DNA of 63,777 nucleotides, filler included, from Rhizaria sp. SCN 62-66 (taxonomy: Eukaryota), in assembly GCA_001724265.1 (NCBI GenBank). It is 3 parts of 3 records of this genome, joined end to end, with 100 filler letters (N's around TTAATTAATTAA, not from the genome) between each part and the next. Parts side by side here need not be neighbours in the genome. Positions count along the whole stretch, not along the records: positions 1 to 23,596 come from MEDY01000426.1; positions 23,697 to 47,283 come from MEDY01000427.1; positions 47,384 to 63,777 come from MEDY01000488.1. One strand, given 5' to 3'. The position numbers and the translations under genes were made by a program. The notes under the pieces are model-generated. The model did not search any database. It was not told the origin of the DNA and worked only from the letters and a program-made list of their open reading frames with translations. Below, one piece after another: positions 11,101 to 60,032 of this stretch (within the stretch, counting starts at the first letter, position 1; each line of letters begins with the position of its first letter).

Positions 11101-13108
11101 CGGCGGCGGCAGCAGCAGCAGCAGCAGCGGCAGCAGGAGTCGGTTCGTGGTCGGTGGTATAGTCACCGTCCGCTGTGCCGATAGGAGCGGAGCCGTCCGC
11201 AGTCCGGCTGGCAGTGCCTGTCTTGGCCTTAGTCGCCGGGGAAGCGAGCCTGCTTAGGGCCGCAGCCTTCGAGTGAGCTGACTTAGCGGTGCTAACAGAG
11301 CGCGCACGCAGCTTGCCCCGGCTCGCGATCGCGGGCGACACGGACGCAACGCCCGCTCCAGCACCCGCATCAGCGCTGTCGCCCGCCCCGTTCGCCTGCT
11401 GCTGCTGCTGATGTTGCTGCTGCTGGACGTAGCCGAGCACCGACGGGACGCCGGCATCCGAGTACTGCAGATGTGCGAGCGAAGGCGGCAGGTACACGTC
11501 GACGAAGTTACGCGGGTTCGATCCGTAGCGCAGCCCGCGCTTGACGGGCGCGAAGTACAGATACTGCGGCAGTAGATAGAGCCAGGTGGGGACGAGGCAG
11601 ACGATGAACAAGTTAAGCCGCGCGAGCATCACGGCCCAGATGGGCGTGGTGGCGAGCGCGGCGATGAGCTTGAGCGCCAGCCCCAGCAGCAGGAGCACCT
11701 CGTCCAGCAGGCGGCGCAGGTAGAAGAGCGCCGACGCCGCGGCTGTGAGCAGGAGTGCAAGGGCGAGGTGGAACGGCAGCAGCGGCAGGCGCAGCAGGAC
11801 GGTATAGAGCGTGGACTGCGCCAGGGTCGGAGTCGTGGGGGCGAGCGTGAAGGCGGCAAGCGGGTCGAAAGAGCGGCTGAGGAACTGCAGCATGTCGCTC
11901 CACAGAGACATCGGGCCCTCAGGGGCACTCTCAGACTCAGCCTCCGCTTCAGTCTCAGTCCCAGTTTCAGCCTCGGCCTCAGCATCAAACCCGGTCTCTG
12001 TCTCTGCGTCGGTCTCGGTCTAGGGCGCTGCGCTGCCGTCCAGCAACACGCCACCATCGGTCTCGGCGACATCCGCGTCACCGGAATTCGCGACCGCGCC
12101 AACCGCTGTGTACGTGTACTTGCGATTCACGTCGGTGCTGTCAAACGTGACAGACCGAGAGTTGGCCGCGGAAATACTCGCTGCAGAAACAGTGGCGGCA
12201 GTGTCGACGTCGCTCACACTGTGGCTGTGGTTAGTCTGTTGCTGTTGTTGTTGCTGGTGTTGTTTGTGGTCATCTGAATGCTGTTGCGACAGCGACGGCC
12301 CCCGTGGCATCTGCTGGAGCTGCTGCAGCTGCGGCATTGAAAGGTCCATCGGTAGCGCAGACAGCGAGTTAGAGTCAGCGCGGGCGCTTCTAGCGTCATT
12401 TGTGGGGGCAGCGCTGTCTGTTCTGGCTCTTGCAGAGGCAGTATTCGAAGCAGTGTGCGCAGAGTAGAAGACGCTTGTATCGCGCAACAGCGCGATTTGC
12501 GAGTCACCAGCATTGGCGCCTGCATTTGAAGACGAAGACGACGACGATGACGACGACGACGACGATGCCATGGACGACGAAGAGAGGGTCAAGAGCGCGC
12601 TGCTGTTCATCGCATCATCAGACCCCGCGCGGCCGCTTCTGGTGCTCTGCCCCGGCGTCTGCTGTGTCGTTGTCGTCGTTGTGGGCATCAGCACGCGCGC
12701 GCGCGCAGCGGGTGTGACCTGCGCGGCCGCGATATGCAGCGGCGTGAGCGCCTGTAAGTGGCTGTGGCTGCGGCCATGTGAGTGTGCGGAGCCCGACAGC
12801 TGCACGGTCTTGTGTAGCGAGCGCGTCGGCGTGCGCAGCGCCGTGGCGTCGACCAACGGCGCGGGGCGCGCGGTCAGGCGCGGGGACGGCGCCGCAACGG
12901 TCGAGTGCCGGCGCGCGGCGGCCGCACCGGGCTGGGGAGCTTGACACGCAGGCGTTGTCATCGTCGTTGTCGCATTAGGGCCGGAGGCGTGGGCAGCGTG
13001 TGTGTCGGATAATGAGTGTGTTGGCGGGCGGCGCGTCGGTGTGGACACTGCTGCAGTGTGCGATAGTAGGCCGGCGTCAATTGAGCCCGAACGGGACCCG
13101 TGCGACAT
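8143..13108 (-). CDS. Isoprenylcysteine alpha-carbonyl methylesterase (ICME/PCME)-like alpha/beta hydrolase with N-terminal low-complexity and hydrophobic regions; one in-frame TAG (12020-12022)
   Basis: Exons 13108-9982, 9861-8885, 8757-8143 total 4719 nt (in frame). Motifs YGSNPRNFVDVYLP, PVLVFVCGGAWTIG, CIDYRNFPQG, YGGDPDQVTVVGQSAGAH (nucleophile), GLSGPYNL, HGTRD and SHTDL match plant ICME family motifs as I know them. The start at 13108 requires TAG read-through; otherwise the start is 11911. Stop TGA. Confidence 0.85.
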
Positions 13109-13299
13109 CGCGATGGAGCTGCGGAGGCCCGAGAAAAAGCTTTCGAGGGAGATTCAAGCGGCAATTCAAAAATGTAGACAAAAGAACAGGAGCACCAAAC
13201 CTACAAAAAACGAAATAGTAAATCAAGTATTAAATGTGATTAGCACTAATTGTGTCTATAAAAATTGGTCTCGACGACTCAGTGCATGGATAAATACGT

Positions 13300-14532: not shown

Positions 14533-15930
14533 TTAGCACACGTCATACCCGGGGCAAATCTCAATGAGATTGCGCACGAAGTCAATCATCGCGCTGCGGA
14601 CAATACGCGCGTCCTCAGGGTCATTATCGCGCGCGACACGCAGCGTGTGCCCACGGTAGCCGCTGTAGTCCTTCACGACGCTGCGCTCGGGCACGGGAGA
14701 GCGCTCCTGCGAGGGCGCAAAGCCAGCGAGGTAGTCCTTGATCGCGCGCACGAAAAACACGTTTGTGCCACGGAAGTCCTGCTTGCCGTGATACTGCTGC
14801 GTGTTGGCCGCGGCGAGCTCAAAGGCGTGCGCGGCGGTGAAGTGGGAGCCGACGTAAAGCTGGCAGGGCGCGTTGAAGTACTCGACGCGCAGTGCGGGGG
14901 ACTTGGGCACGTAGATCGAGTCGTCGCCGGAGGAAGTGCCGAAGCTGGCCGTGTCGACGCAGGCGCGGAGCAGCTCCAGCCGCTCCGTCTTGGCGCCAGC
15001 GTCGGTGCTCCACGCGCCCAGCTTGACGTTGAGACAGCGCGCGGGGTCCTCGCGCAGACGCATGTGGGCCGCCATAAACTCGTCGAGTGCGCTGGCGTCG
15101 GGGGAAAAGGCCGCGCAAAGCGCGGGCTCGCCCGCGAAGGGCTGCAGCTCTGTCGTGCCGGGCGCGGACATGGCGCGGACGTACGGGTGCATGACCGAGT
15201 GCCAGAAGAAGCCCACGGCCTCGGCGCTGGAGACGTCGGGCTCGGCGCACAGGTTCAGCCCCTTGGTCACGCGCGTGATCCCGGCGGCGTCGGCGGAGGA
15301 GAGGATCGTGGCGAGGTGCTTCGACGCCGTGCTGATGCGATCGGCGCAGGCCGGGTGCGCCTCAGGCTCCTCACGGTCGTAGAAGGCGGAGGACTTGACG
15401 CGCTCGAGACGCGGCGTGTCAGCGACGGCGCCGATGACGGCGAAGTGGGAGCGCTGGAACTGCTGGCGGTACAGGGCCGCGATCGTGGCACCGTGGCCGG
15501 AGCCGACGAGGATGATGCGGCGCGTGTCCTTGAGGTAGGCCGAGTAGCTGAGCACGTGGTACAGGTCTGCGATCATGTTCGCCGTTGTGAAGGTCTCGCG
15601 CGCGGGGCCCGCAACGGGGGTAGAAAGAGAGTACATCCGCAGAGGAACCCAGTAGAAGGTAAACTTGTCCGTGTCGGCGCCATAGGTCTTGAAGAGCTCA
15701 GATTGCGACTCGGGTGAGCTGTTGTCCAGAGCGAAGTGCTCGTCGTTGATAAAGACAAAGGCGTAGTCAGTCCTCTTGGCCTGGGATGCAGTAAACGGAA
15801 GCTTGAAAGTGCCGAGCTGTGACGACTTGTTGAAGTGGTCGTAAGGCAAGTCCATCTCGAATTGCACGAGGGCCTGAGTGCACAAAGCGAGAGCGGCCAA
15901 GCCCACCAAGACACAAAGCTTCTGCAGCAT
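14533..15930 (-). CDS. Secreted/lysosomal peptidase family S28 (PRCP/DPP7/TSSP-like) homologue, divergent, with altered nucleophile motif
   Basis: Signal peptide MLQKLCVLVGLAALALCTQA. Motifs PYDHFN...GTF, PLRMYSLSTP (~HRYYGKS), NMIADL (~QALADLA), IILVGSGHGATIAALYRQQF (~GGSYGG.LAAW.R..YP), TNVFFVRAIKD and GHT. Single exon as read; stop TAA. Confidence 0.7.
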   Translation of the reverse strand: MLQKLCVLVGLAALALCTQALVQFEMDLPYDHFNKSSQLGTFKLPFTASQAKRTDYAFVFINDEHFALDNSSPESQSELFKTYGADTDKFTFYWVPLRMYSLSTPVAGPARETFTTANMIADLYHVLSYSAYLKDTRRIILVGSGHGATIAALYRQQFQRSHFAVIGAVADTPRLERVKSSAFYDREEPEAHPACADRISTASKHLATILSSADAAGITRVTKGLNLCAEPDVSSAEAVGFFWHSVMHPYVRAMSAPGTTELQPFAGEPALCAAFSPDASALDEFMAAHMRLREDPARCLNVKLGAWSTDAGAKTERLELLRACVDTASFGTSSGDDSIYVPKSPALRVEYFNAPCQLYVGSHFTAAHAFELAAANTQQYHGKQDFRGTNVFFVRAIKDYLAGFAPSQERSPVPERSVVKDYSGYRGHTLRVARDNDPEDARIVRSAMIDFVRNLIEICPGYDVC

Positions 15931-17261: not shown

Positions 17262-20116
17262 TCACTTGACTGCCCGCCACACGGCTCTGGCGACGGCAAC
17301 GGCGCAGAGCAGCGGCAGCGCCTGCTGCACAGTGACGCCCGCGGTCAGCGCCGCCGCGCCGGGCACTCGGTCCCACAGCAGGTTGAACGGGATCGGCGAG
17401 CAGCAGAGGCTGAACCACAGCAGCGCGCCGCCCCACCGCATCAGCCTGGCCAGCACAGCGCGCACCGAGCGGGCCGCGCGCGCAAGCGACGGCTGGGACT
17501 GCGGGCGGGGCGACTGGGAGTCGGCGTGCTGTTGGGCCTGCTGTGCGTGCCCCTGCCGCCGCGGGCGCTGCTGCATGTCCACGTGCCCGCGGTGCGGCGA
17601 CTGACCCCGTGACTGCGGTGAAGAGCGAGTCCGTGACGGCAGTTGTGGGCCTCGACCCAGAGATGACGACGAGCTATTCGTCAGCGACTCCGGGATTACA
17701 TACACAGAGTGAGATCCAACGTCACCGCGTGAACGTGCGTTTGAAGACTGGTTTAACGACGAACCCTTTGCTTTCTTCGGAGGCTTGTTGTTGTTGCGGT
17801 CATTATACTCAAAGTCGCAGTCATCGCAACCGGGACCGCCACAAGTCGCACAGCTGGCGTGATCAAGATCGCTTGCCTGCTCACAGTCGCTCGCTCTGTC
17901 ATTCAGATCAAGCGCGTGGCCAGCGCCGCCCTCTTGTTTGTGGTGGGACCTTTTGATGTAGCGCTCATCATGGCTTGCACTGTCATGCTCGTCACCAGGA
18001 TCATCGTCAGAGTCGGAGAAGTCTTCCTCGTCGCAGTCCTTATCGTTCATGTCGCCGTGAGCAGACGCGCTGCCAATGTCACACCCGTGAGATGCGTCTA
18101 TTGGAGAGACTACAGGCACAGGCGCGTCACGAGTATTTCCGCCAAGAATAGCAGCTAGAGAGCAATGGCATTAAAACGCAATGTAAAAAAAGGACATGAC
18201 GTGAGTTTTGCAATGTGGGTATACAGGAAATACGACAAATCACAATGCAGCTCTGGAAAGTAGCAGACTTGACGTACTGACAATTGCTGCAGTCGCTGCA
18301 GCGCCGACCAGTGCGACTTGGCTTTGGTTCACAACCATGAGCGCCTCAAGCCCGTACAGCACAAGCCACACCGCAGGCACAGCCACTGCAATCGTGAGCG
18401 GCGCGGATTGCTTCGCCGTTTGTGCACCCACCAGTGACTGAGGGCCGCTTTGTTGCAACCGCGCCTGCGTCTGCGCCTGCATCTGCGCACGTTGCGACTG
18501 GTTCGTTGTGCTCGCCTTACCGCCACCGTAGCTCGCGTTCGCATCGCTATGCGCGCCGCGCCCACTACCGCTGCTGCGCCCACTACCGCTGCCGTTGCCG
18601 CTGCCGATGCCGCTGCCGCTGCCGCTGCCGCTGCCGCTGCTGACCGCCGCTGCTACCGCTGGCGGCAGCAGCGGCGCGGCACCGCGCAGCCCCTGCTTAA
18701 GCCCCAGCACCAGCGCCGCGAGCGTGAACGCGGTGTGCGTGGCCGCGGAGACGGATGAGAGGCCGGCGAGGAACGACGGCAACAGCGCCGGCGGCAGCGG
18801 CAGGCGCGGCAGCAGGGCGAGCAACAGCACCAGCGGCAGCCTATAAGTGCAAAAGCAAGATCACAAACATAAAACAAACGTAATATGATTAGCGAAAGCG
18901 AGTGAAACATTAACGGACACTAAATAAACTTAATCATCGTGTTTGTTCGCGTTTTTAAAGCGTATTAAAAGAGATGCAAGATTCGAGATGACATTGCTGT
19001 TCCGTGTCAAAGTACCGCAGGAAAAGCCACCGATCAGCCCGTCGCGTGTCGTGTGCGTACGCGACGCCGCCCACCGCGCCCAGCTCCAGCTCCAGCTCTT
19101 CCGCCTCTAGCCCTGCCTCTGGATCGTAGCCAGCGTCGCAGTGGCGCCGCATGTCACTGCGGTCCCAGTCCTTCTCGTGCTCACAGTCATACGTGGCGGC
19201 GGCAGTGTAGGCGCGCGCCGCCTCGGCGGTCGCGGTGACCACGGTCATCGCGGCGGAAGTCAGGCCGCCGCAGCCGAGCGCGCGCGTGACCGTGAGCGCC
19301 GCGATCGGGGTGGCGAACGCGCGCACGGCGCTGGCGCGGAGCAACGCGCGGCGCAAGCGGGTAACAGTAACTGTAAGCGCAGCCATCGCCGCGCTCGCTG
19401 CGTCAACGCTCGCAGCCGCATTGCTCTTGTTGCTTTTCTTCGAGTACGTGTCGTCGCCACGCACGTTTTTGTTGTCGTCAAATGTGGCGCGCTTTGTTGG
19501 TGTTTGAGGATGCACGTTGTCTGCGCTCTTGTTTTGAGATTTCTTCGTATAAAGGAATCCGCTCTTGCTAATGCCAGCAACGTCAGCTGTGGCTGCGTGC
19601 ACTCGCTGCTGCTGCGCGGAGTACTTGGACAAATCTGCCGGGGCACTTACATTCTCGCAAGACATACTCACATTCGCGATGCCGGGGAGCCGCGCGAGGG
19701 CGCGCGCAACTGCGAGAGACAGCGAGGCGCGGATAAAGAGCAGCGACGCGGTGACGAGCGCGAGCGAGAGGACGCATAGGCAGCACTGCGTCCAGAGCGG
19801 CGCCGACTGCGAACAAATGTTGCACAGAGCAAATCACAAAAAAACACACGATTAGGTGGACCTTTCAAACAAAAATAGAGGGTATTGAGCATTATATCTC
19901 AAAATTGCGTACGTTGATGTCGTTAATAAAGTAGAACGCGGCGATATTGGCGACGACCGACGCGAGTGCGAGTGAAGCTGGCGCGGGGCTCAGTCGCGAC
20001 AGCAAGCGGGGACACGCCAGCTGCCAGCGGCCCCAGCGGTCGGCGCCGCGCTCCGCTTCGTAAAGCAGCCGCACAGCGACGCTCAGGGGCGCGCGTGCGG
20101 CCGGAATAGAGGCCAT
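17262..20116 (-). CDS. Hypothetical multi-pass membrane protein (~816 aa)
   Basis: Exons 20116-19913, 19806-19016, 18840-18278, 18154-17262 splice in frame with GTAC donors and YAG acceptors. Many hydrophobic Leu/Ala/Val segments are separated by low-complexity loops. Stop TGA. No family recognised. Confidence 0.7.
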
Positions 20117-20536: not shown

Positions 20537-23106
20537 ATGCAGGCAGCCCGCCTCGCTTGGCGAACCGCGGCTACCTTGGCGGCCCAGCTGCGGTCCCCCC
20601 TCCTCTCCGCCGCGACCGCCGCCGGACCACGTCTAGTCACTTACCGCGTCTTTGCGCCCCTGTCCACGGCGGCCACGCCCGCGCGCGTTGTGCTCTCCGT
20701 GTCTGCCGTCGCAACCTCCGCCGCCGCCGCCGCGCTGGCGGCCCCGCTGCCCACCGCGCACACCATCGCGGCGCTGCCCGACGCTTCAATCGCCTCCCAG
20801 CACGCCGCGCGCGTGCGAAACCCGGCCCTGTCGACCTCAGACGCGCAGACGACCGTGTCCGGGTGGGTGCGCACGTGCCGCGGGCAGAAGAACGACGTGT
20901 TCGTAAATGTCAACGACGGCACTAACGTCGCGGGCATGCAGCTCCTCATCTCTGAGGCGCTTGCGCCCGCCGACACGGTCGCCGCGGCGCGCGCGCTGAC
21001 GGCTGGCGCCGCAGTTACGGCCTCGGGTGCGCTGGTGCGGAACCCGCGCCAGACAGACGAGGCGGCGGCCGACGCGTTCGAGCTCCATGTTAGCACGTTG
21101 ACAGTGTGGGGCAAGTGCCCCGCAGACGCCGCCGCGGCCGCCGCGCAGGTCGGCGTTCCCGTCGAGGCTGTTTCCAGCATTGCCAGCGACGCCGCCGACG
21201 CTGCCGCGGCCGCTAGCAACAAGAGCAACAAGAAAAGTAAGAGCAAGAGCAAGCAGGCTGACGCTGAGGCCGACGCCGCTGCTGCTGCTGCCGCGCTTGC
21301 GGTGCCCGCTGTGACGGTGTGCGAGGTACCCATTACGCCGTACCCGCTGCAGAAGAAGGTACAGACGCTGCCTTTTCTGCGCAGTTATCCGCACTTGCGC
21401 CTGCGGACGAACACTTACGGCGCGGTCTTCCGCATCCGCTCAGAGGTACGGCGCGACTTTCGCAGGATATATCGACAATGATGATCATGCGCAAAATAAT
21501 TATGGTATGATTTGTCATGAGTATATCGTGTAATGTTTAATCTATTGCTTACGCTTTCTTTGTCTTCTATTAATGTCGCCATATTAACTGTTGTTGTGTT
21601 TTGTGCATTAATTTCCTACTCTTTGTTATCGGTTGCAGGCGTCGTATTTCCTGCACGAGCACTTCCGCAGCGCTGGATTTAGCCAGGTCCATGCGCCCAC
21701 GATTACCCCGCTGGACTGCGAGGGCGCCGGTGAGCTTTTCTCCCTCGTCACGCCCTCCGCTCACGCGAGCAACTCCACGGCCACGACTGTTACTGAGGCT
21801 TCCTGTGCGTCGTTTGTGCCGTCGTCGAATGCTCGGCTTACGGTCACTGCCGAGGACGACGTGTCAGCTCTTGCTGTGACTACCTCTGCTGCCGCTCCTG
21901 TGTCGCAGACAGAGTTTTTCGGAACCAACGCGTACATGTCCGTTTCGGGCCAGCTCTACGGCGAGATTGCCGCGAGCGCTGTCAAGAAAGTCTTCTCCTT
22001 CGGCCCCACATACCGTGCAGAGGTACGTACTTCCTATTTCCTCTTACTATATTGATCAATATCACTTAAATAAGCTGGTAACTTGATGGAACTCATTGCG
22101 CGTTTCGAGAACAACAGCTCATTTCACATCATCACGTTACCTGCTCGTTTGCTGGTGACGTACAGCCCTCTTTGACATCGCGCCACCTGGCCGAGTTCTG
22201 GATGCTGGAGCCCGAAGTTGCTTTTGCGGACCTCGCAGCCGCATGCACCATGTGCGAGGCCTCGATCCAGAGTGTAATCCGCGCGTTGTTGCACACGTGC
22301 GCCGACGAGCTCGCGTTCCAGGAGGCGCGCCACCGCCCGGGGCTCGTCGCGCAGCTCCAGGCCGTGGTCGACACGGCCTTCGCGCGGGTGACGTACACGG
22401 AGGCCGTCGAGATCCTCACGCAGGCGCAAAAGGACGGCAAGGTACGATCTTTTTACTCTATTTACACTGGAAGTTATGATGTCACATTCAAGTTTGATCA
22501 CTTTTGCGTGATGCCTTTATTTCACACACACAACAAATGTATGATTTCCGTTGTTTTGGTTGTCTCGCGCAACAGGAAACGTTCTCTTTCCCTGTGGCGT
22601 GGGGCCTGTCTCTGCAGGCCGAGCATGAGCGCTACCTCGCCGAGGCCCACTTCCGCGCACCGGTCTTCGTCACCAACTACCCCGCGGCGCTCAAGCCCTT
22701 CTACATGCGTGTCGACGACGCACCCGCGCAGCCCTCCGCCAGCGTTGTCGTCGCTCCCAACGACGCCGAGGGCAAGTCGCCCTCTGCCGCAGACTCGACC
22801 GCCGCCGCCAGTGCGAGGACGGACTTCCGCACAGTCGCCTGTTTCGACCTCCTGGTGCCGGGCATGGGCGAACTCTGCGGCGGTTCCCAACGCGAGGAGC
22901 GCTACAGTATGTTGCTCTCGCGCATGGCCGAGAGCGGGATGAAGACGCGCGACTACGCGTGGTACGCAGACCTGCGCCGCTTCGGTACCGTCCCTCACGC
23001 CGGCTGGGGCATGGGGTTCGAGCGCTTCGTGGCATTCGTAGCCGGCATGGAGAGCGTGAGGGACACCACGCTTGTGCCGCGCGCCGCGGGACTCATGCAG
23101 ATGTGA
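20537..23106 (+). CDS. NARS2: Asparagine--tRNA ligase, probably mitochondrial (bacterial-type AsnRS)
   Basis: Exons 20537-21445, 21639-22022, 22166-22441, 22576-23106 (699 aa). Motifs [97 protein letters not shown]. The Arg/Ala/Leu-rich N-terminus resembles a mitochondrial presequence. Stop TGA. Confidence 0.95.
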
Positions 23107-23596: not shown

Positions 23597-23696
23597 NNNN
23601 NNNNNNNNNNNNNNNNNNNNNNNNNNNNNNNNNNNNNNNNTTAATTAATTAANNNNNNNNNNNNNNNNNNNNNNNNNNNNNNNNNNNNNNNNNNNN
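23597..23696. other. Artificial contig spacer (N44-TTAATTAATTAA-N44)
   Basis: Exactly 100 nt, with a central palindromic six-frame stop linker. Identical to the spacer at 47284-47383. Confidence 0.97.
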
Positions 23697-23737: not shown

Positions 23738-23962
23738 ATGAGCCACAACAACAACGCCCATGTGCAATCTGCCTTGATCCGTGACGAGTGTGCCTACTAC
23801 CGTGAGCACGATAACACTCGCTCAGCTGACAGGGAGGTTTGCAATAGTGTCGTTCAACAGAACACCTATGCTCGCGACAGCGAGAGCATGGTGCAGAAGG
23901 GTCGCGACCAGTACCCCAACGCGTACGACCAGCACCGCGCTGATCAGTACGGCCGCAAGTAA
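23738..23962 (+). CDS. Small hydrophilic hypothetical protein (74 aa)
   Basis: ATG just after an acceptor-like T-rich TTTTCAG. Strong C/G-ending codon bias compared with the flanks (MSHNNNAHVQSALIRDECAYYREHD...DQYGRK). Stop TAA. May have upstream exons lost at the contig edge. Confidence 0.55.
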   Translation: MSHNNNAHVQSALIRDECAYYREHDNTRSADREVCNSVVQQNTYARDSESMVQKGRDQYPNAYDQHRADQYGRK

Positions 23963-24886: not shown

Positions 24887-25287
24887 TTACCACGCTTGCT
24901 TGCGTCCCCCCCTGGCACTCTGTGCATTGCCATTCGTGTTCGCAATATTAGCGTTGTTGATGTTGTTGTTGTTGTTCGTGGTGGCCTTGCTAGCAGCAAT
25001 GACAGCCGGTAGGAACGTCGCATCAACGTCAAAATCGACGCCTAAATCAGAACCTGCATTAACAGCAACATTAGCAGCGTCAGCATTAGCGTTAACAGCT
25101 GTTGAAGTGTTAGAGCCGCGTTCAACGATGTCAACGCTGCCGCTGCTGACGCCGCCACTGGCGCTTGCACTGGGACTGATGCTCGGTGTCGTAGCAATGC
25201 TCACCGCAGCACCCGCACTGCTATTGTTGTGCGCACTGCTCTAGTTGTTGTTGTTGTTGTTGTTGCTGTTGTTATTGTTGCTGTTGC

Positions 25288-25320
<33 letters not shown>

Positions 25321-27098: not shown

Positions 27099-27129
<31 letters not shown>

Positions 27130-27519: not shown

Positions 27520-27562
<43 letters not shown>

Positions 27563-41790: not shown

Positions 41791-41826
<36 letters not shown>

Positions 41827-44218: not shown

Positions 44219-45487
44219 ATGAAGCGTAAGGTTCTTCTCATGGGCAAGGCCGGTTCCGGCAAGACGTCCATGCGTTCTATTATCTTCGCCAACTACCCTC
44301 CGCGCGACACGATGCGTCTGGGCCCCACATACGGTTTCGAGAACACCGACGTCAAGTTCCTCGGCTCCCTCGGTACGGCAACTTTGCACCGCCTATATCA
44401 TTCCTCGCTCCTATATAACTTTAATGTGCCATGTATTGTAACTGTATTGACGTGTGTTATTTGTTCCATCTTAATTCTCACTCATCTCACTCTTCTGTCT
44501 CCTCTTTTGTACTCTTGACCAAACACAACTCCACTTACGCCATTTTTTGCCGTGTTTTGCTAACGCTCTCTAGTGCTGAACCTGTGGGACTGCGGCGCGC
44601 AAGACGCGTTCATGGAAAACTACTTCGAGTCCCAGCGTGATCAAATCTTCCGCAACGTCGAGGTCCTCATCTACGTGTTCGACGTCGAGAGCCAAGACCA
44701 CGCCAAGGACATGGCCACCTTCCTCCGCTGCCTGTCTGCGATCGAGGAAAACAGCAAGGACGCGCGCGTCTTCTGTCTTATCCACAAGATGGACCTCATC
44801 CCCACGGACCAGGGCCGCCAGGAAGCGTTCCAGCAGCGCGCGCACCAGCTCACGAGCCATGCCAACGTCGTCCAGATCACGTGTTTCGGCACGTCGATCT
44901 GGGACGAGACGCTGTACAAGGCGTGGTCCGCCGTCGTGTACTCGCTCGTGCCCAACGTCGAGCGGCTAAGGGGGTACTTACAGAACCTCTGCGTGCTGTG
45001 CCAGGCGGACGAGGTCGTGCTGTTTGAGACGGCGACGTTCCTCGTCATCGCCAGCGCGGACAACCCGGAGCTTGCGCAGCTGCTGCTCGCCAACAAGAGC
45101 AAAAGCGCGAACAGCGGCAGCAACGGCGCCAACGGCGCCAACAGCGGCGCGGGCGCTGACGGCAGCAACGGCGGGGGTGCCAACGGCGACGGGGCTCTGG
45201 TGGGCTCCGAAGTTAGGCCGCCTGCCGATGCCCACCGGTACGAAAAGATGAGTAATATTATCAAGCAGTTCAAGCTGTCGTGCGCCAAGACACAGTCGTC
45301 GTTCCAGTCACTCGAGGTCGCGAGTTCCAAGGTGACGGTGATCATGGAGAAGTTCACGGCCAACACGTGCATCATGGTTGTGGTGAGTCATAATGATGGG
45401 ACGGGGAGGGAGCGCGTGCAGTCGGCAGGCATCCGGCTTAACTTGCTGACGGCGCGCGCACTCTTTGAGAAGTTCGTCAATGCGTAA
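44219..45487 (+). CDS. RRAGA: Ras-related GTP-binding protein A/B (Gtr1/RagA)
   Basis: Exons 44219-44372 and 44574-45487 (355 aa). [88 protein letters not shown]. Stop TAA. Confidence 0.96.
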
Positions 45488-45841: not shown

Positions 45842-46431
45842 TCAGTTGTTGGGGTACAGGTGAGGGTTCAACCGCTTCGCCTCAGCGTCCGCCTCGGCCT
45901 TGTCCTTATGCATCTTGAGACACAGCTGCAGCAGCGGCTCCGTGAGCTGGCCCTTCTTGTGCGCCGTCGCGAGCTGTGCCGGGGTCGCAAGCACGATCAC
46001 TGAGCCGTCGAAGGTGAAGATGTTGGTGAAGTCTTCGGAAGTGAGCGCGCTTTTGAGGTTGCCATACATGTTGGTGTAGCCGCGCTCGGGGCAAACGCGG
46101 GGCAGCGCCTGCATTTCCTCGGAGACGTCCTTCATCGACATCCGCAGTCTGTGTGGCGTGCCGCAAAGGAGAAACGATGTAGACGAAATGGAAGAAACAC
46201 ACACAGGAAGTGCAAAGAAGAGGGAGAAGGTGAGCGCTCGAAGCACGAGGGAGGAAAGGAGGAAGAAAGCGTCAAAAACGGAGACATTGGCATTAGTGGG
46301 AGTGGTGGCGTGTTGACAACGTACAAGCGCGTGCCGCGAGTGGAGAAGACCTTGATGACGAAGGCGGTGAAGGCAGCCTTGTCGCTGGCAGAGCCGTGCA
46401 CTTCAGGTTTGTCAAAGCGAGTGGAGCTCAT
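45842..46431 (-). CDS. Hypothetical protein (137 aa)
   Basis: Exons 46431-46325 and 46148-45842 splice in frame (GTACGT...ACACAG). Strong GC3 codon bias. Stop TGA. Confidence 0.75.
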
Positions 46432-47283: not shown

Positions 47284-47383
47284 NNNNNNNNNNNNNNNNN
47301 NNNNNNNNNNNNNNNNNNNNNNNNNNNTTAATTAATTAANNNNNNNNNNNNNNNNNNNNNNNNNNNNNNNNNNNNNNNNNNNN
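47284..47383. other. Artificial contig spacer (N44-TTAATTAATTAA-N44)
   Basis: Same 100-nt structure as 23597-23696. Confidence 0.97.
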
Positions 47384-48144
47384 AAGACTGCCCGCCGTAA
47401 GCCGCTGATCGTGTTCTCGCCCAAGTCTCTCCTGCGCTTCAAGGGCGCCTCCGCGACCTACGACGAGCTCGCCCCCGGCACCGCGTTCCGCCCCGTCATC
47501 GGCGACGCCACCATCACTGACCCCGCCGCCGTCAAGCGCCACATCATGTGCTCCGGCAAGGTGTACTTCGACATCGTCGACGCGCTCGAGAAGGCCGGCG
47601 TCCGCAACAAGGTACGCTTTTCACCAATCATCTCATATCACATCATATCACATCATATCATTCCAATTTCGCAAATCACGAGTTTGGAGGAAATCATTGT
47701 GAACTTTTCGGGTGGTTGTAGCTGACTAAGATATCAACATGTCATCTCGTTTTACACCCTAAACCATTATATTTTATTCACACCACACTTTACTCTTATC
47801 TTGTGCTCTATATCCCGCTTTTTGTCGTGCTTAATGTCTTAATCTTGTAGGTCGCTGTCACTCGCGTGGAGCAGATCGCGCCCTTCCCCAGCCGTGCGGT
47901 GCAGGCCGAGGACGCGCGCTACCCCAACGCCGTCGACACGGTCTGGGCGCAGGAGGAGCACATGAACATGGGCCCCTACACCTACGCCGGCCCCCGTGCC
48001 GAGACGGCCACCAAGGTCAACCGCGGCGACAACCACCGCGTCAAGTACGTCGGCCGCCCCCCCGCCGCCGCCGCCGCCACCGGCTCCGGCAAGGTCCATG
48101 CGCAGGAGCTGGAGAACTTCCTCGCCGAGCTCACCACGCTCTAA
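47384..48144 (+). CDS. 2-oxoglutarate (or 2-oxoadipate) dehydrogenase E1 component, C-terminal fragment (5'-truncated by contig edge)
   Basis: Exons <47384-47611 and 47851-48144. RKPLIVFSPKSLLR, CSGKVYFD, RVEQIAPFP, WAQEEHMNMG, YVGRPPAAAAATG...H..E. OGDH versus DHTKD1 cannot be resolved from this fragment. Stop TAA. Confidence 0.92.
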
Positions 48145-48153
48145 GTAGCTCCG

Positions 48154-48175: not shown

Positions 48176-49775
48176 GTGCCTCAGTGTGATGCTACTCGTC
48201 TTCTTCGAAGCTAAGTGCTGCACGGTCGCCGTGCGTGTGCTAAGTCAAGCAGTACTTAGTGAGTCGCGGGTGGCGTTGCTGCTGTGGTTGCTTTGCTTAA
48301 GAGCGAATGAGTGGCCCCGGCATGTAAGTAGGACATACCACTCTCTCTTTATTTCTTTGTTCTTTGTTTCGCGACAGCAAAGGAAAGACGGTGAGGGGAA
48401 CACTGCTTAGATGCTTTATTCTATTGAAAGTGCGTCGTTCAATCAAGCCATTTCTTATTTTTTAAGTCCTCTTTTGCCTCGATAAGGAAGACTTTGTGAA
48501 AAGGAGCAAATGCTTGGTTGAAACAGCGTGCTTTGTTTGTGTTGGTTGTTTTTCGTGTTAGTCGTTAAGTCGTACGTTGAAGTTGGTTTTAAGTCGCTTT
48601 TTTAGTTGAACTAGAACTAACGTATTATATTATAGTCGACAACGGCAACTATTGCAATTCGACAACCTAATATCGCCGATAGTCGCGGCACTTAGTGCTG
48701 CTACGGTCGCTCTTGGATGTTGCTTTTGTCTTCGTTGCTGGTTGTTCGCCAAGGTCAAAGTTCAATCCATGATAATAATAATGATAATCATTCCTGTAGT
48801 CTCTGTTTTTTCTCTATCTGTGTTTTCTCTTTGTTCGCATGTTTCTTTTTTCTCTCTCGTGATCTCTCGTAAGCTCGAGTGGTGGTGTTTAGTCGATCAT
48901 GGTGTGGTCGCAGTGTTGCTGTGCTGCTGTCTCTCGTTGCTGCTGTTGTTGGCGGGCGCTGACTCTCGCATTCTCACGCGAGTCAGGGTTGTGCTTGTGT
49001 GTTGTGAGGTTGTTATTGTCTTTTACAGAGCTCACCTCGCTCTCTCGCGCTGTTGTTTGTTCCCCAAAACGAATGAATGGTGCGATTGACTGAGTCGTGC
49101 GCTTTGTGTGGTATTCTTACGTTATTTATTGATCGCCTCAACACTCATTCCCAAAAGCAAAAGCAACGATTACATGGGCAGCGAGTTGCGTTCATTCCAC
49201 GCTATGCACCCTCCAGACAACCCGCCGCATACTCCAGCTGCTTTTGCAGTTGCCGCTGTGACAGCACCAGAAAGCTCGTTGGAAGAGAGAGAGAACAAGT
49301 TGAGTGAGGACAAAGGGGAGAGCCGGAAAAGTCAGTGGAGCAAGATTACGTTCGTTTGCAGAGAGATATAGGCTGTGGAGACAGACTATTATCATAAATA
49401 AAATTTTATTTGTACACTGTATTCACATATGCATCCTTCGAAAGCTAGAAAGTTAAGCTATGAGGTAGACGTTGGTTGTGTGCGATTCAAACAGCAGGAC
49501 ATGATTGACCCGAGTCCAAGGGGAGTGACATAAGCATATACAAGCTATTTATATGTATTCGTGCTGATTCTGTCGATGCGTAGTTGTCCTCACAATGGCC
49601 ATCTTGATCTAAATATGTCCGAATTATTCCGTATTTACTTAAACACGGTGATGATAACTGCAGACCCAGGAAGGCACTACTTATCACCATGTTTTAATCA
49701 CATTGACACAGCTAGTTTAATTTACTTATGCACTATCTTAGCGGTTATACTCGCGCTGTCAAGGCGTGTCGGGGC

Positions 49776-50886
49776 TCAGTCGAACTTGTAGCGTGTGCCG
49801 CCGCCGGCGACGAACGACGAGGAGGCTTGCATGTACATGCCCACAAAGCCCATGAACAGACACTGCACACACAAAAAACAAGAGACATAGTAGCAAAGTA
49901 TACGTGAGATTTAGCACGAGTAAACAACAGAGACAACTGTGATACCATTGTGAGAAAACAGGATTGCAAACCAAGTACACCAAACGCCATCACTTCTGCA
50001 ACAGCGCATGTGCTTTTTGTCACAGTAGTGGCTTTACATAAAGCCGCGCAATTTAGGGACACACACCGCTTGTTTCAGAGTATACATGGATCTATATTTC
50101 GTCGTGTCCATTGTGCGTGCGATTTCTACCCGATTTGCAACGTACCGAGGGTGCGCAAAATGCAATCGCGGCGCCATGCCACGAGTCCGGGTACGTGGTC
50201 GCCGCGAACACGGCCAAAATGGGGCAAAACGTCAGCACCAGAGCAGCGCGCTTCGTCTAAATGGAGAGAAAGGCAGTGGCAGCAGACGACATTGTCGGGA
50301 ATTAGTGTTGGGTTCACAGTCGCAGCGCCGATCGTCGAATCAGAGAACTCGTTAAAGAGATTGGAGTGAGCTGCTGATCGACACTTCAAGCTCATATCGG
50401 CACAAAACGAGAATATAATCAAGAAGCACAAATAATTCAGACGATACAGTCGTTCCAGAAGAAGCAGTTGTTCGCGTTTGGCGTGTGTGCGTACCTGGTC
50501 AGTGAAGGTTCCCTTAGGGTTGGAGACAGTCCAGGGCGTCTCCTCAACGACAGGATTGGAGAGCGCAAAGGAAAACAGCGCAATGGACGCCGCAATCGAA
50601 ATGCCCCAGTGGAGGTAAAATGCGATGAGCGAAGTTGAGGAGAGAATAACGCAGGCCAAGAGGCACTGGAGGGCGACATGCATAGTCCGAGTGCGGTTCC
50701 AAATTGGGTCGAAACGGGCATGCAGGGAGATCGGCTTAACTTCAGACGCTAAGCTCGAGCAAAAGCAGAAACACAGGAATAAAAAGTAAAGGAGGTTGCG
50801 TGAATGTAATAAAGTTTGAGTTCGACATCAATATCTTCGTTGTGGCACTGTAGAGGGGAGCGGAGAGACGTACCGGAACTTAGCAT
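49776..50886 (-). CDS. Small hypothetical membrane protein (~154 aa, about 4 hydrophobic segments)
   Basis: Exons 50886-50874, 50748-50495, 50256-50146, 49862-49776 splice in frame with GTACG donors. Ends GGGTRYKFD-TGA. An additional upstream exon is possible. Confidence 0.65.
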
Positions 50887-51584
50887 CTTCTGTCAAGTGG
50901 GGCGATACAAAGGGAGAGATATGCAGGGGTAGAACAAGTTTAGTAAAAAGACTGAAAGGATATAACAGAGAATACATACAGATACATAGCATGCAGCAGC
51001 GGCATGCGTATCGACGGACGTTTGGGGGAGATTCAATGTCCGAAGGTAAGGCCACCAGTCTCAAACAGCGCCACAACACTGCTTGCTGCCATTTGTGGTG
51101 GCTGGCGGGGGTGTGTGTGTAGACTGTATTTCTTGACCTTGTCACATTTCTTCTGTGACACATTTCACATGTAGTGTTTTTGTTTGTTTGTTGTTGTTGT
51201 TAATTGATCTTGCCATGTCTATTTCATATTCTATTGATTGAATATGCAGATATGATATATTTGATTCCTTCAATCGTTCACTTACTTCTGATCCTAGTTC
51301 TAGTTGATTTATCAGATCCATCCCTGCATCAAATATATTAATAAATTCCCCGTTATGTTGCCTGTTTCTCGTATACTCATGATCATCGATTTTTCTTTGG
51401 TACAAATGATCGCGTAGTCTACAATTATTAATCCTAAGTATTTAATATCCGTTTGTTTGTCTGTTGCTGTGCTTCGACAAAAAATGTACATGATGCACCA
51501 ACGATTAAGTTAACTTATGCAATTATCGTATTCAATCGCTATTTAGCCTTTTTTTCCCCTTCATCCAGCTTGCTTGTCTCTGAA

Positions 51585-51801
51585 TCATCCATTATGCTCA
51601 ATCTGTTGTTGTTGTTGCAGAGTGGAGGTGTTTACGCTCTTATTACTCATAATCACCGTCATCATTTGTTGCTGATATTGCTGGAGCTGCCACATAAACC
51701 TTTGCTGTTGCTGCTGAAGCTGCTGCTGAAACCACTCTAAGTGGCCAAACATCTGATGAAGCTGCTCCAATCCTTGATCACGAACTAGCTGAGGCTGCTG
51801 T

Positions 51802-51839
<38 letters not shown>

Positions 51840-54452: not shown

Positions 54453-57400
54453 TCACTTGTTATTGAGCTCAGTGTTGCCATTTTTCTTGCAGAACTCAGT
54501 CAGGGATAACGGCGGCACTCGAACGCCTGCCTTTTCGCTGACGCCAACAACGACATCAACAAGCATGTCCCTCTCTTCAATTGCAAGATCAAGATACTTC
54601 GTCGCCAAGATAAGCCGTCTCTTAACCCTCTGCAGTGCCTCCAGGAGCATTGTTTTTTCCGTCTGATGTGCTGCGCGTTTCTTGATCAGAGCGGTTTCAA
54701 GTGCGAGAAGCCTCTTAGCTGTTGCCTCTGGCGTCGCAGTTGCAAGGAAGTGCTCGATATCACTCATGTTGCCTGTGACACGCAGGTTGTTGCCGTTGCT
54801 GTTGTGCGGGGTACTTAGACTTAAAGGCAAATGCTCTGGCGGTGTAAGTGCCGTTGTTGCTGATGCCGATGTGAGCGCTGCATCCACGCTAGCGTTATTG
54901 TTGCTGAGGCCGTTGTTGCGGCTGGTGTGACCGCCTTTAAGCGTGTTGTAGCTCTTAAGTTGCCTTGGTGTAAAGGGTGCAGCGAGGTGACTGTGGGCAG
55001 AGAGCTGGCTGTGGACGAGTGTGGTTGAAGTGCACACAGTCAGCGGTTGCGCTTGTAGCCGTGGCGGCCTGCTGTGCGTCTCACCAGCAATACTAGTCGA
55101 CGATGCAACGTCCGTTATGTTGAGAGCATCATTTTTGTGAGCACCATTTGCATCAGTGGCAGCAGTGTCGACGCCCTTGTTGTAATAGTAACTCTGGGGG
55201 CTAAAGTGATTATGAGCAGTGATATTGCAGGCTCTAACATCTCTACCACTGGCTGTACTCGTGTGCGTTTGATCATTGACACTTTGCGTTGTTCTCAGTC
55301 CCGGAGACATTGGTGCCGAGTTTGTGTTATATAGCGGTAACGCGTGCACGAACGACCGTGAGCAGGTGATAAAACGGTCACCGTGCTCAAAGTCACTAGC
55401 ACGTGTTACTGCAGCATGCACAGTCTCACTGTCTTCAGCGAATGTACTCAACGTCGGCTTGCGGTTTGCGCCGGAATCGCGACTTGCAATAAGCCCAGCA
55501 TTGCTGATAAAGGCGACGATTTCAGCCTCAGCTTCAGCCTCTGCCTCGGCTTCACTCGCAGTGTTCCACTCATTATCGCTCTCGGTACCACTGTTTGCAT
55601 TGGCTGAAGCAGCCACTGCTTTGTGGTTGCTTTGACCATTGCTGTTGACAGTGCTGCATTTGATTTTCTTCATGTGCGACAAGGTTGGCTCGGTCTCTGA
55701 AGTGCTGAGATCAATCTCACCTTGGCTTGCTAGTCGTTGCACTTGAACTCCTTTGCCGCTCGCACAGGAAGTAATGAACAGCCGACCGCTAACAGCAGGC
55801 GTTGTAGGAGTCACAGGACCGAGACACTTGGCCGAGCCGCTTGCGCGAGCAGGAATGCGACCGCGACTGTTGCCGTGTTTTCCGCCTTTGGCTTTGGCAA
55901 CAAAACCATGTTCACTTACGTCATTGATCGCCGTGCATACAGAGCTTTTGCTACCATTGCCGCCGTCACTGTTGTCGTCAAGCTTACTCACATGTGACAT
56001 CATATTTGGACGCGTATGCGCGACTGCGTTGCTAGTATCCAGCGACGCGGGTACGGAAGACGGCGCCTGCGATTGTGCCAGCATCGCTTTCTTACTGTTG
56101 CTGACAGGAGAAAACAACGATGCTGGAAGTACGCTTATGGTGCAGGTGTTGCCTGCGTTCTTTGGCATTGAGACAGCAGTGCCGGCAACCACGTCTGTTG
56201 GCAACACTTGTGATCCAAGAATCATTGACTGCTGTGCACAGGCTGTAGCTCGCTTGCTTGTTCCTTCAGCATAATCATTTCCAGATAAAGGCGATTTGGC
56301 ACCAGATGCACTTGGTGCCGGCACAACAAATTCTGCACTTGCTTTTGGCACCGACGCTTTTGACGTAAGAATCGTGACGTTATATGGAGTCTTCGGCAGC
56401 CGGGTCTCTGGCAGTGAGTCAAGCGTCAGAGGCAACGGCGGTTGCTGCTGTTGCGACAGTAGCTCACTGACGCTTGTGCTTGTGCTTCGCAACTCAACAT
56501 CTGATGTGACGCGTGCCTGGTATCTGTGAGCGTCAAAATGGCGGCGCATGTGGCGCGTCAGTCCGCCGACCACAGTTGTCCCCATAGCATTACTAGTCGC
56601 GTCATTAATACTGCCGCTCCCACAAGTGTAAGCGCTGTGACCGCCGGGTACCGTGGTGCCTGCGGAAATAGGCGCGTCGCTTACAGTGGGCAACGAATTG
56701 TTGGTGACTGTCGGAGCCGTAGCGCAGGCACCTGTGCGCACGCTTGAGTTGCAACGGACTAAAACATGTCTAGAAGCATTGGGTGGTGTGAAAAGATTGT
56801 CGGGAAGAAAATACCGAACTTCGTCAAGCTGCGGCGACAAAGACGCAAAGTCGCAGCAGCTACTCGTGTCACTTCGACCGTCATTGCCACAGCTCACCGC
56901 ACCCGCCTCGCATGTATCAGCGGAACCGTTGTCACCAAACCGTAACACAGTAGTCGCCGCAGGAGAAGTCTGATTGCTGCTGCTCACAGTGCCTGTTTTG
57001 CTTTCACTTGCATCGATACCTGCGTTAGCGTTCGCCGTAATCCGATCACATCCACCGTGAATCACTTCAAGGTGCCTGTCGTTTGCGCTAGCCGCAGGCA
57101 CACTAGCGCTGCTTAAGACGGCTGCGTTGTTAGGAGCGATGCCCCTTGCGTTTACCGCTGTATACGTGACTCCCTCAACAACCACAGTCTCCGGCTTCCT
57201 CTGAACAGACAACATCCTAGACTCTCCCCCGGCTGCTTGCGGTGACCGCGCGTGCCCGCGCCTTAGCTTCTGCTGGGGTTGATTCTGTAATTGCATTGGC
57301 AGCTGCGGCTTTGGCTGCGCATTGGCTTTCAACTGTGCCTGCGACTGTGATTGCAGTTGAGATAGGGACCCGCCTTGTCGCTGCATCGACCGCTGATCCG

Positions 57401-60032
57401 TAGCAACCGGAATCAGCTGGGAACGTGCCTGTTGCTGCTGGAGCTGCTGCCGCAGTGCCAGTTGATCCTGCCGCAGAAGCAACGCGTGTAGCTGCGCCTG
57501 CGATTGAGTCAACGATAACGACTGCAAGTGCAGCTGCTGCTGATGCGACTGAGACACGGGCTGCAGCTGCGGAGGAACAAAGTACTGCGGCTTTTGTTGC
57601 TGTTGCTGTTGCGGTTGATGATGGTATTGATGCTGTGGACGCTGTTGCAGCTGCTGTTGCTGCTGCAACGTAGGCAGCTGAGCGTTCAAGTTTCTAGTCG
57701 CAGCAGCCGCACGCAGCGAGCAATGGGGTGAACAGCTGCCAGTATCACCGCGTGCCATCCGTGGCGGATAACCGCCATCACCGTCGATGTTATTGTTAAA
57801 CTGACCATGATTGACAAATACGCCAACACTAGGGTTGACAAATTCAGCACATCCATCACAATGAGGGATGCCACAATAACAATCACCCTGGTTTGTCAAA
57901 CTCATGTCGTCTTGTTCGTCACTCCATGCGTTGTTGTCATAGTTGTTGTTACCACCATGGTGCTGCCGTTGGTGTGACTGCTGCTGTTGCTGTTGTTGCC
58001 ACGCATAGGTAACAGCATTCCCTTGCGGAAACTGCAACTGCTGCTCCTGCTGCGAAGACTGAGGTTGCTGCGCAGTGTGTGGCTGCGCAGACAGTGCGAG
58101 CTGCCAAAGCTGCTGCTTTTGCTGCGTTGCGTACACGTGCTGCTGCAAGTACCGCTGCTTACTCAAGATATGCTGCTGCTGACGTTGGAACAGCTGATGT
58201 TGCACAGTGAGCGGGAGCGAAGGCGAGGGCAACGGGGACAGCGAGGATGATGACACTGTTGCAGTCACCGACATCTCAGTGCCTGCCGATGCCGTACCTG
58301 CGCACAGCAGCTGCTGTTGAGTTTGGGAGCAGTTGGTGCTCGCAGAGAGTGTGCTTGCGTCCGCTTGAGATCGGTTATTCCGCGGGCGCTGCAGCAGGGT
58401 GACGCGGGGCTGAGGCTGCTGCTTCTGTGGCTGCCCCTTCTTGCGGTTTCCTGTAACAGCGCCACTGTTGCTGGCCTTTACACAAGGCGCCGTATTTGAC
58501 GCGTCTTTGACGCCTAGATGTGCGCCGACAGCGACTGGCATCCTCACATCTAGGACTTCGCTGCAACACTCGTTCGCGGCGGTGTTAAACCTACTGGGGG
58601 TGCTACCAGCGTAGGCCGCGGATGCCGCCTCGTGGATTTCAGCGATGACACCCGCAGGCAAAGACAGAAAGATACCGAGTTGCTTAAGCTTTGAGGTCAA
58701 ATATTCGCACCTATTGGTCAACATCGCGACACTCATGCGGTCACTCCCGCCGCTGGCGCCATTCCTGCCGCAAACCTCAGCATCGGCTGCAACAGCGTCG
58801 TCACTGGAGGCACCAGTTGCAGTCGTGACACTGGTTTGAGGAACAGTTGCCATGGTCAAATCGAGTGCCGAGGCGGTGTTGGCGCTGGCGCCATCAGCCA
58901 TCTCTTTAGCCACCGCAGCAGCCAAGTGAGCCCTTGTCTCTGTCACCTTACGCACGAGGTAGTAGTAACGGCGGCGGTAGTTTTTGCCGTCAACGCAGAA
59001 TGACACCACATTGTTATTGACCGAGCTTGCGCCGCTCCACTTTAGTGAGGCAGAAGCAGCAGCTATGCCGCTTGAGTTTGCGTTTGCGGGTACGTTAGCG
59101 AGGTCGCTGGCCCTAGAGTCAGCGCTCACAGTAGCGTTGCGTGTGGTCGGCGCACCGCTACAAGTGGGAGTACTGTTGCTACCCCCAATCTTCTTTCGTA
59201 TGTCGATCCATACGTGCTTCACTGCAGCGGCGCGTACTCCAGACGCGTCGCTACAGACTGCACTCAGCCCGGAGATGTCAGTGCTAGAAATAGCAGAGTC
59301 GATATGAAGTCTTGCAGCACACTGCTGTGCGCGGTTGTTGCTTGCTAGGGTCACCACTGAAGCTGCCTCCCCGCCCAACAACGCAGTCTTGCGTTCTTGG
59401 GGTGATTGGGAGAGCTCCATCGCCGACTGCACTTGCGACGTCTGAGACTGCGGCCGTGCTTGTGACAGGGACTGCGACTGCGAGTGCAGCAGCTGTTGTG
59501 ACAGAGGGCAAGTTGATGAGACAGCCCACTCCGCGGTAGTAACACCGTGAGTGTAGACTGCTGTGGCGTCGATGTCATCATCTGCGCTGGTCTTACTTTT
59601 AACGTTGCCAGTGCTGCCGACACTGAGAGCCGGCTTTTGGTTGTTGCCGCATCTGACAATGTTAGCGCTACTGTCGGCGACACAAAGCAGTGACAAAGCA
59701 GGAGCGTGTGCAGATGGCGCAGGAATTCGCGGCACCGGCTAAGGCGATGATGCAACCCCAGCGATTGCACTTGCGCTCGTTGCAACGATACGTGGCGGGG
59801 TTTGCGAGCTCGAGGACGCGTTCGTGGTTGTACTAGCTGGCGGCGTGCGACTTGCGCCCGGCTTTACAGGCCGCGGCTGCGGCAGTAAGCTCTAATGCTG
59901 CAGCGCATGTGGAGATGACGGGGCTGAACGTGATACGACTTCGCGTGGAAGGCGCGGAGCCGGCATCGTGGGCGACAGCAAAGACGCTGATAGGTATGAC
60001 TGTTCAAGTTCACTACGCTCTTTAAACAAACC
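54453..60032 (-). CDS. Large hypothetical low-complexity (Ser/Ala/Gln-rich) protein with C-terminal coiled coil; two in-frame TAGs (59892-59894, 59739-59741)
   Basis: The 1760-codon ORF extends in frame to ATG 59966 and to an acceptor-like TCTTAG| at 60033, interrupted only by two TAGs. Coiled-coil tail LLALETALIKKR...LAIEERDML. Stop TGA. Confidence 0.7.

Follow-up and report, generated by a model that had tools for sequence, protein, structure and literature searches.

Our analysis of a 63,777-base stretch of the genome of Rhizaria sp. SCN 62-66 (below, 'the window'; three contigs separated by N spacers at 23597-23696 and 47284-47383) suggests, tentatively and with somewhat less than even confidence, that UAG is read as a sense codon in the nuclear genes of this organism. 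This is the best single explanation we can offer for TAG codons that split open frames in the genes of a PCME-like alpha/beta hydrolase and of a giant USP/UCH protease, because the ordinary readings of such codons fail at three sites, a relative of the hydrolase gene keeps a single open reading frame (ORF), and none of the gene ends that could be fixed in the window is a TAG. The proposal that UAG is sense while UAA and UGA remain stops had been put forward from inspection of the DNA (below, 'the sequence-only reading'), and it is borne out in part: the three in-frame TAGs, the single ORF of the relative and the absence of TAG from all 12 fixable gene ends speak for it, while two further sites proved weak and no TAG falls in a conserved domain.

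Five TAG codons had been reported, at positions 12020, 25241, 26198, 59739 and 59892, on all three contigs and in three unrelated genes. Both statements are correct: CTA on the plus strand gives TAG on the minus strand at five of five positions, and the genes concerned are the PCME-like hydrolase, the USP/UCH protease and an orphan gene. The TAG at 12020-12022 (minus strand, as are all the TAGs described in this paragraph) is located in the first exon of the PCME-like gene, where 377 open codons precede it and 697 follow. The one at 26198-26200 lies 521 codons into the last exon of the USP/UCH gene and is followed by 318 open codons, and the one at 25241-25243, in the same exon, comes after an (AAC)n run, with 117 more open codons beyond it. 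The two remaining sites are found at 59739-59741, at the 5' end of a 1761-codon orphan ORF, and at 59892-59894, 25 codons past the first ATG of a GC-rich block, where the TAG could close an upstream ORF. One more in-frame TAG, absent from the sequence-only reading, is present at 60033-60035 in DNA of 25-30% GC and is probably non-coding.

To assess coding continuity, six frames were scored in bits per codon with a codon table trained on seven confident coding stretches. In the frame of the TAG, the upstream and downstream flanks scored 0.20 and 0.30 at 12020, 0.46 and 0.45 at 26198, and 0.45 and 0.51 at 25241 (1.16 and 0.15 in a separate scoring of the last site), while the two other frames of the same strand ranged from -0.13 to -0.38 and no opposite-strand frame exceeded 0.23. 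Local GC stays at 55-70% across 12020 and 26198 with no dip (60-70% at 12020), and a dip at 25241 is due solely to the (AAC)n run. In the orphan gene, the 50 codons upstream of 59739 scored -0.01 in the frame of the TAG (0.16 in another frame) against 0.19 downstream, and at 59892 the 50 upstream codons scored -0.11 and the downstream flank -0.01. The claim that coding sequence continues on both sides of each TAG is thus upheld for 12020, 26198 and 25241 and not for 59739 and 59892, where the upstream side is not clearly coding in frame. For three of the five sites the observation is real and beyond chance: they carry an in-frame UAG within otherwise intact coding sequence, as is expected of a UAG-only code variant.

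Three ordinary readings were considered for these robust sites. Termination of the gene at the TAG, with an untranslated region behind it, fails, as the coding signal continues in phase; the start of a neighbouring gene fails as well, there being no spacer and no change of frame; and an intron is unlikely, with no dip in GC, no suitable donor where one was sought (at 12020) and the frame kept at 3/3 sites. A broader version of the last idea, which we regard as improbable, attributes the TAGs to errors of assembly or consensus in contigs full of repeats, or to atypical GC-rich introns that are spliced out. The contigs are indeed assembled from a metagenome and trinucleotide repeats abound in these regions; the NDUFS8 intron at 37736-38047 has about 50% GC, so that introns are not all AT-rich; and the C preceding TAG 12020 makes it resemble a YAG acceptor, with no pyrimidine tract before it. 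However, three independent single-base errors, each yielding an in-frame TAG, are unlikely, and if introns could have any length, the frame would be preserved at 3/3 sites by chance once in 27. Evidence of coding moreover extends right up to the TAGs, the 20-codon flanks still being positive at 26198, and upstream of 12020 there is no suitable GTRYG donor, the GT sites there being devoid of the G at position 5 found in all inspected donors.

Two of the robust sites also emerge from a blind scan of all stops on both strands with an open frame on each side, in which a stop passes if its frame beats the five others by more than 0.1 and local GC is at least 0.5. With 60-codon flanks, 101 stops were open (18 TAA, 37 TAG and 46 TGA) and only 12020 and 26198 passed; with 100-codon flanks the same two passed among 22; and with 40-codon flanks four of 236 did so, namely TAG 12020, TAG 26198, TAG 46444 and TAA 23960. 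TAG 12020 passes at flank lengths of 30-100 codons and TAG 26198 at 20-100 codons, and 25241 fails on the GC filter alone (0.47, owing to the AAC run). The assertion that neither TAA nor TGA interrupts a frame in this way is true of the filtered set alone: TAA 428 (plus strand), TAA 9926 (minus) and TGA 50828 (minus) split long frames too. Both TAAs reside within AT-rich introns with normal splice sites, and TGA 50828 was dismissed as a coding interruption since its flanks score as non-coding. Equally dismissed were TAG 27886, 37772, 47848 and 50126, which are intronic or located at splice sites (acceptor AG), TAG 46444, which is part of a small gene's 5' leader and shortly precedes the ATG, and the region 48500-50000, where ORFs end in TAG in AT-rich DNA with no convincing gene. 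TAA 23960 (plus strand) is the sole TAA to pass the flank test, at 30-40 codons. It closes a 74-codon ORF (23738-23962) at the start of contig 2, and the sequence remains coding-like for about 55 codons further in frame; this could reflect chance, or a 5' splice site that coincides with the stop.

The PCME-like gene (8143-13108, minus strand) affords the most detailed view of a TAG in its surroundings. Exon 1 (9982-13108) starts with the first ATG of a GC-rich block, at 13108, GC content rising from 30-35% to about 60% at 13150, just 5' of this ATG; it encodes a low-complexity N-terminal extension, a membrane region and the start of the hydrolase domain, and ends at a 5' splice site at 9981. 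The order along the gene is an extension of about 360 low-complexity residues, TAG 12020, 37 codons, an in-frame ATG and the conserved membrane region. Next comes an intron of 120 nucleotides and 40% GC (9862-9981) with GT...AG borders, which served as a control: it holds the in-frame TAA 9926, and the hydrolase domain resumes beyond it. Exons 2 and 3 (8143-9861, separated by an intron at 8758-8884) lead to a TGA at 8143-8145, past which GC falls to 30%. The exons match the Pfam families BD-FAE, COesterase and Abhydrolase_3, and downstream of the TAG the splice sites of two introns and the catalytic motifs are intact. We also observed that the protein would combine its disordered N-terminal extension of 360-400 residues with very long low-complexity insertions in the hydrolase fold.

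When public metagenome contigs were scanned with the region surrounding 12020, one relative locus emerged (L001, 2189 nucleotides). From its own rise in GC this locus carries a single ORF of 586 codons (431-2188, plus strand; 3' end open), which comprises an N-terminal extension of 336 residues and the membrane region with no stop between them or elsewhere. The membrane region is 62% identical to that of the PCME-like protein over 138 residues, and the two extensions attain a local alignment score of 124, compared with 80.5 +/- 11.7 for shuffled sequences, of which 0 in 500 reach 124; the score of their global alignment is matched by 1 in 300 shuffles. Because L001 carries both parts in a single ORF, and because the extensions are alike beyond composition, the comparison of these sequences indicates that extension and enzyme form one coding sequence in this lineage, and that this sequence includes TAG 12020. 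A MAFFT alignment places Tyr opposite the TAG and the local alignment places Ser there, the stretch being too variable for the assignment of an amino acid. The suggestion that UAG encodes Gln thus finds no support, this being the sole site that can be aligned. No further PCME relatives were retrieved in two scans of genome contigs, which used patterns from the low-complexity part, or in one scan of viral contigs, and a protein word-index search with the region across the TAG gave no match among the 8000 candidates scored, low-complexity words having probably swamped their choice.

The second gene with robust sites encodes a giant protease of the USP/UCH type and has roughly 3,800 codons (24887-36746, minus strand), its UCH domain split by at least two introns. 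The upstream part (27764-36746) comprises the ATG at 36746-36744, a large exon extending to 28627 and an intron with its 5' splice site at 28626; the Pfam UCH matches fall on the upstream exons, and a UCH exon ending at 27952 is followed by an intron of 188 nucleotides (27764-27951) which holds TAG 27886. The protein begins Met-Gly-Ala-Cys-Ala-Ser, which we take to resemble a myristoylation signal. With its 3' splice site at 27764 and a UCH motif at its start, the last exon, if TAG is read through, spans 24887-27763 and encodes the C-terminal end of the UCH domain and a long low-complexity tail closed by TAA at 24887-24889. Under the standard code the protein ends at 26198, leaving 435 more codons with an undiminished in-phase coding signal. 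Database comparison did not help to interpret the tail: a protein word-index search with the tail across the TAGs produced no match among 8000 scored candidates (again, low-complexity words probably swamped the choice), and an exhaustive HMMER search with the read-through exon returned two matches, the 105-residue ORF of the window itself past TAG 25241 and a 172-residue protein with E = 2.7e-4, and no believable relative.

A UAG-only code variant is further expected never to terminate genes with UAG. The sequence-only reading had counted about 16 gene ends, eight TAA and eight TGA. The equal split and the absence of TAG stand, with smaller numbers: 12 ends, six TAA and six TGA, could be fixed, each at the stop that comes first in frame when the standard code is applied (60638 and 43136 were excluded, as introns may follow). 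The TAA ends, in their order along the window, belong to a hybrid histidine kinase/response regulator (7409-7411, plus), an S28 serine carboxypeptidase (14533-14535, minus), NDUFS8/TYKY (38793-38795, plus; aligned to the last residue of solved chains, e.g. 231/231), a flavin oxidoreductase of the old-yellow-enzyme type (42263-42265, plus), the GTPase RagA/Gtr1 (45485-45487, plus; aligned to residue 300/313) and the E1 component of 2-oxoglutarate dehydrogenase (48142-48144, plus; aligned to residue 882/895). The TGA ends are those of the PCME-like gene (8143-8145, minus), of ORFs at 17262-19833 (17262-17264, minus), of asparaginyl-tRNA synthetase (23104-23106, plus; aligned to residue 484 of a 490-residue solved chain), of the small two-exon gene with TAG 46444 in its 5' leader (45842-45844, minus), of a 637-codon Q-rich ORF (51585-51587, minus) and of the orphan gene (54453, minus). 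Four of the 12 ends (NDUFS8, asparaginyl-tRNA synthetase, the dehydrogenase and RagA) are anchored by the C-termini of solved homologues. Since TAG makes up 24% (180/755) of the frame-closing stops in the window, the chance of finding no TAG among 12 ends is about 0.04, for a small sample. All 12 terminators are thus other than UAG.

These gene ends bear directly on leaky or programmed read-through, according to which UAG is still a terminator and some ribosomes make extended isoforms. We consider this quite unlikely here, even though read-through extensions are typically disordered tails, as is the USP tail, and a change of code would be unnecessary. TAG as a terminator was found at 0/12 gene ends of the window, and the sites share no common context, the bases after the TAGs being ACC, AGC, CGT, CCG and AGC; what characterizes programmed read-through, a shared stimulatory context and termination by the same codon elsewhere, was therefore not seen. 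Read-through would also leave unexplained a TAG located 363 codons into the PCME coding sequence, upstream of the catalytic domain, as well as two successive TAGs in the tail of USP.

A more serious competitor of UAG as sense, although we still deem it unlikely, is the tolerance of premature stops under the standard code: nonsense mutations would have truncated the disordered N-terminal extension of PCME and the disordered C-terminal tail of USP, so recently that the severed parts keep a coding appearance, and the TAGs of the orphan gene would be stops in its 5' leader. All robust sites do lie outside conserved domains, USP cut at 26198 retains the whole UCH domain, and an ATG lies 37 codons past TAG 12020, just ahead of the conserved membrane region. 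Mutational bias points the same way: in the codon table, one-step precursors number 1155 for TAG, 524 for TAA and 371 for TGA (counted by hand), so that about 56% of random nonsense changes would yield TAG and the chance of three TAGs in three is about 0.2. The density of TAG is, besides, far under that of established reassignments. Several findings argue against such tolerance. Surveys of populations usually find stops of this kind in under 1% of genes, and three in two of about 20 genes is far above that share. Past the two USP stops, codon bias is undiminished, at 0.45 and 0.51 bits per codon. For the tail of USP to gain its second stop, about 3% neutral divergence would by our estimate be needed, yet the frame is otherwise intact over 435 codons. 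Downstream of its TAG, the PCME coding sequence is preserved across two introns and retains its catalytic motifs. The analysis revealed neither a frameshift nor a nonsense codon of the TAA or TGA type, and the chance of about 0.04 for the absence of TAG from the 12 gene ends counts here too. Mixed disablements and loss of codon bias, by which a pseudogene or decaying gene would be recognized, were likewise not found: the interruptions are TAG only, no frame is broken and downstream scores equal upstream ones. A very recent single nonsense change may nonetheless have occurred.

Several points weigh against reading UAG as sense, and they are why we propose it tentatively. TAG use is very sparse, with three to five in roughly 14,000-15,000 codons (from summed ORF lengths), a density more than tenfold below that of the rhizarian exLh. 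As the sequence-only reading had itself noted, and as we confirm, the TAGs all fall outside conserved domains: none is present in the Pfam-matched parts of eight conserved genes, and the robust TAGs are all in disordered, low-complexity parts where truncation spares the catalytic domains. UAG at conserved positions with one consistent amino acid, which a code variant would also be expected to display, was not observed, TAG 12020 with its Tyr or Ser being the only site open to alignment; the lack of a conserved-position TAG in 64 kilobases reflects, in our view, the scarcity of data in such a stretch and does not contradict a code change. L001 contains zero in-frame TAGs over its 586 codons, an in-frame ATG follows 37 codons past TAG 12020, and TAG-biased nonsense mutation makes the fact that all interruptions are TAG far less striking. 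The TAGs at 59739 and 59892 are weak candidates, no more than 125 codons from the 5' edge of the GC-rich block of the orphan gene, and may be 5'-leader stops. ARAGORN found no transfer RNA (tRNA) gene of any kind in the window and Rfam gave no match there. Finally, the window was chosen for the pattern itself, so that a discount for looking elsewhere applies.

If UAG is indeed sense, it would be decoded rarely, as an amino acid, and UAA and UGA would terminate translation. Translation from ATG 13108 through TAG 12020 would then give the PCME-like hydrolase as a single protein, and the USP protease would acquire its full low-complexity tail, through TAGs 26198 and 25241, to TAA 24887. UAG would presumably be read by a tRNA whose anticodon is CUA, or else by some efficient near-cognate reader, and eRF1 would be expected to be poor at recognizing UAG; no eRF1 gene is present within the 64-kilobase window. 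The TAGs of the orphan gene may or may not share the phenomenon.

The window is eukaryotic and possesses introns, and Pfam domains are spread over adjacent ORFs in differing frames (UCH protease, the old-yellow-enzyme type oxidoreductase, a class II aminoacyl-tRNA synthetase, Gtr1/RagA and the alpha/beta hydrolase). GC content ranges from 47 to 75%, with sharply distinct coding blocks and exons of 55-80% GC. Nine introns inspected by sequence have mostly 23-45% GC (one, that of NDUFS8 at 37736-38047, about 50%), GTRYG 5' sites and YAG 3' sites, and those with both borders mapped are 120-310 nucleotides long. Among the inspected introns, donors are GTACG, GTATG or GTGCG and never GTAAG or GTGAG, and several contain a CTAAC-like motif (e.g. 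9862-9981, 347-516 and 38414-38633), in one case a few bases 5' of the 3' AG. The donor and CTAAC features might aid in placing the lineage. At the joints between contigs, as read at the first of them, two runs of 44 Ns flank a 12-base spacer, and no inference was drawn across joints.

Matching DNA occurs in metagenomes from bioreactors, wastewater and activated sludge (13 run entries from seven studies, including a polyA RNA run with a share of 0.21). The RagA ORF (44564-45487, plus) has metagenomic relatives at 68% and 57% identity, and its named matches are mostly from oomycetes, together with one chytrid, at 48-50%, and one mite protein at 36%; by comparison of protein sequences, these values point to a poorly sampled eukaryotic lineage.

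The orphan low-complexity gene (54453-59738, minus strand; TGA at 54453) has no match to a Pfam family. The hybrid histidine kinase (2-7411, plus), cut at the contig start, exceeds 2,400 codons, reaches 75% GC and carries a C-terminal response-regulator domain. An intron of about 170 nucleotides within its ATPase domain (347-516, plus; borders by eye and approximate; about 23% GC) holds TAA 428. The codon-aligned antisense frame of this gene has long open stretches bounded by TAG alone, the reverse of the Leu codon CTA, and 'TAG-only' frames can therefore arise on the wrong strand. At 49900-51200 (minus) a multi-exon gene for a small membrane protein has several short introns, TAG 50126 lying a few bases past a GTACGT donor.

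Nuclear codes that separate UAG from UAA are few, the sources consulted describing one rhizarian, one fornicate and some ciliate lineages. In the rhizarian exLh (Sainouroidea), UAG is reported to encode Leu, with UAA and UGA as stops and 384 in-frame UAGs in 71 genes, often at a conserved Leu (PMC5304391). The present case resembles exLh, as described there, in being non-ciliate, in having only UAG in frame and in the absence of UAG from the fixed gene ends; a tRNA with anticodon CUA was predicted for exLh (PMC5304391). It differs in density, 384 UAGs in 71 genes versus three to five in about 14,500 codons, and in having none at a conserved position. The fornicate Iotanema spirale is described as reading UAG as Gln and retaining UAA as a stop (PMC5304391), and shares with our case an uncoupling of the meanings of UAG and UAA in a nuclear genome. 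Iotanema is, however, an anaerobic metamonad, whereas the window encodes complex I (NDUFS8) and 2-oxoglutarate dehydrogenase, and Gln is unsupported here. For phyllopharyngean ciliates, a more recent account gives UAG as Leu in one lineage and as Gln in two species, with UAA as the preferred stop and some suppressor tRNAs (PMC11687900); on the strength of this account the list of UAG-only cases in the sequence-only reading is out of date, several of these ciliates having been added. In an oligohymenophorean ciliate, UAA and UAG are reported to encode different residues (PMC10553269). The phyllopharyngean cases are akin to ours in that, by the same account, a UAG-only sense reading was found from metagenome-derived genomes. 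In contrast to the window, ciliates are described as using UAG widely as sense; here the DNA is GC-rich, spliceosomal introns measure 120-310 nucleotides and TGA is as frequent as TAA at gene ends (six and six). A search of the literature for a UAG change in a wastewater eukaryote found nothing specific, supplements being outside the search. Genes with tolerated premature stops are a comparison of another kind, similar in the low-complexity N- and C-terminal location of the sites and in a TAG bias that arises here from codon usage rich in CAG, GAG and AAG, and dissimilar in density, with three stops among two of about 20 genes, in a coding signal that does not decay downstream and in the lack of TAG gene ends.

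Should the tolerance of premature stops prove true instead, the TAGs would be ordinary truncations of little interest. If UAG is sense, the organism would be a further UAG-only case in an unrelated, unsampled lineage, and hence an added independent origin, and gene callers that assume the standard code would truncate or split genes such as the PCME-like gene and the tail of USP. Its distinctive trait would be a very sparse use of UAG restricted to disordered parts of proteins, which would show the first steps of a stop-codon reassignment. It is thus tempting to speculate, although we consider this possible rather than probable, that an early, low-use stage of the passage of UAG from stop to sense is seen here in a GC-rich, uncultured eukaryote that inhabits wastewater bioreactors and branches deeply. 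In such a stage, equally conjectural, UAG would have gone from gene ends and would be returning as sense, rarely and only in those disordered regions that are free of constraint, offering a snapshot of codon capture that is lost in the established cases.

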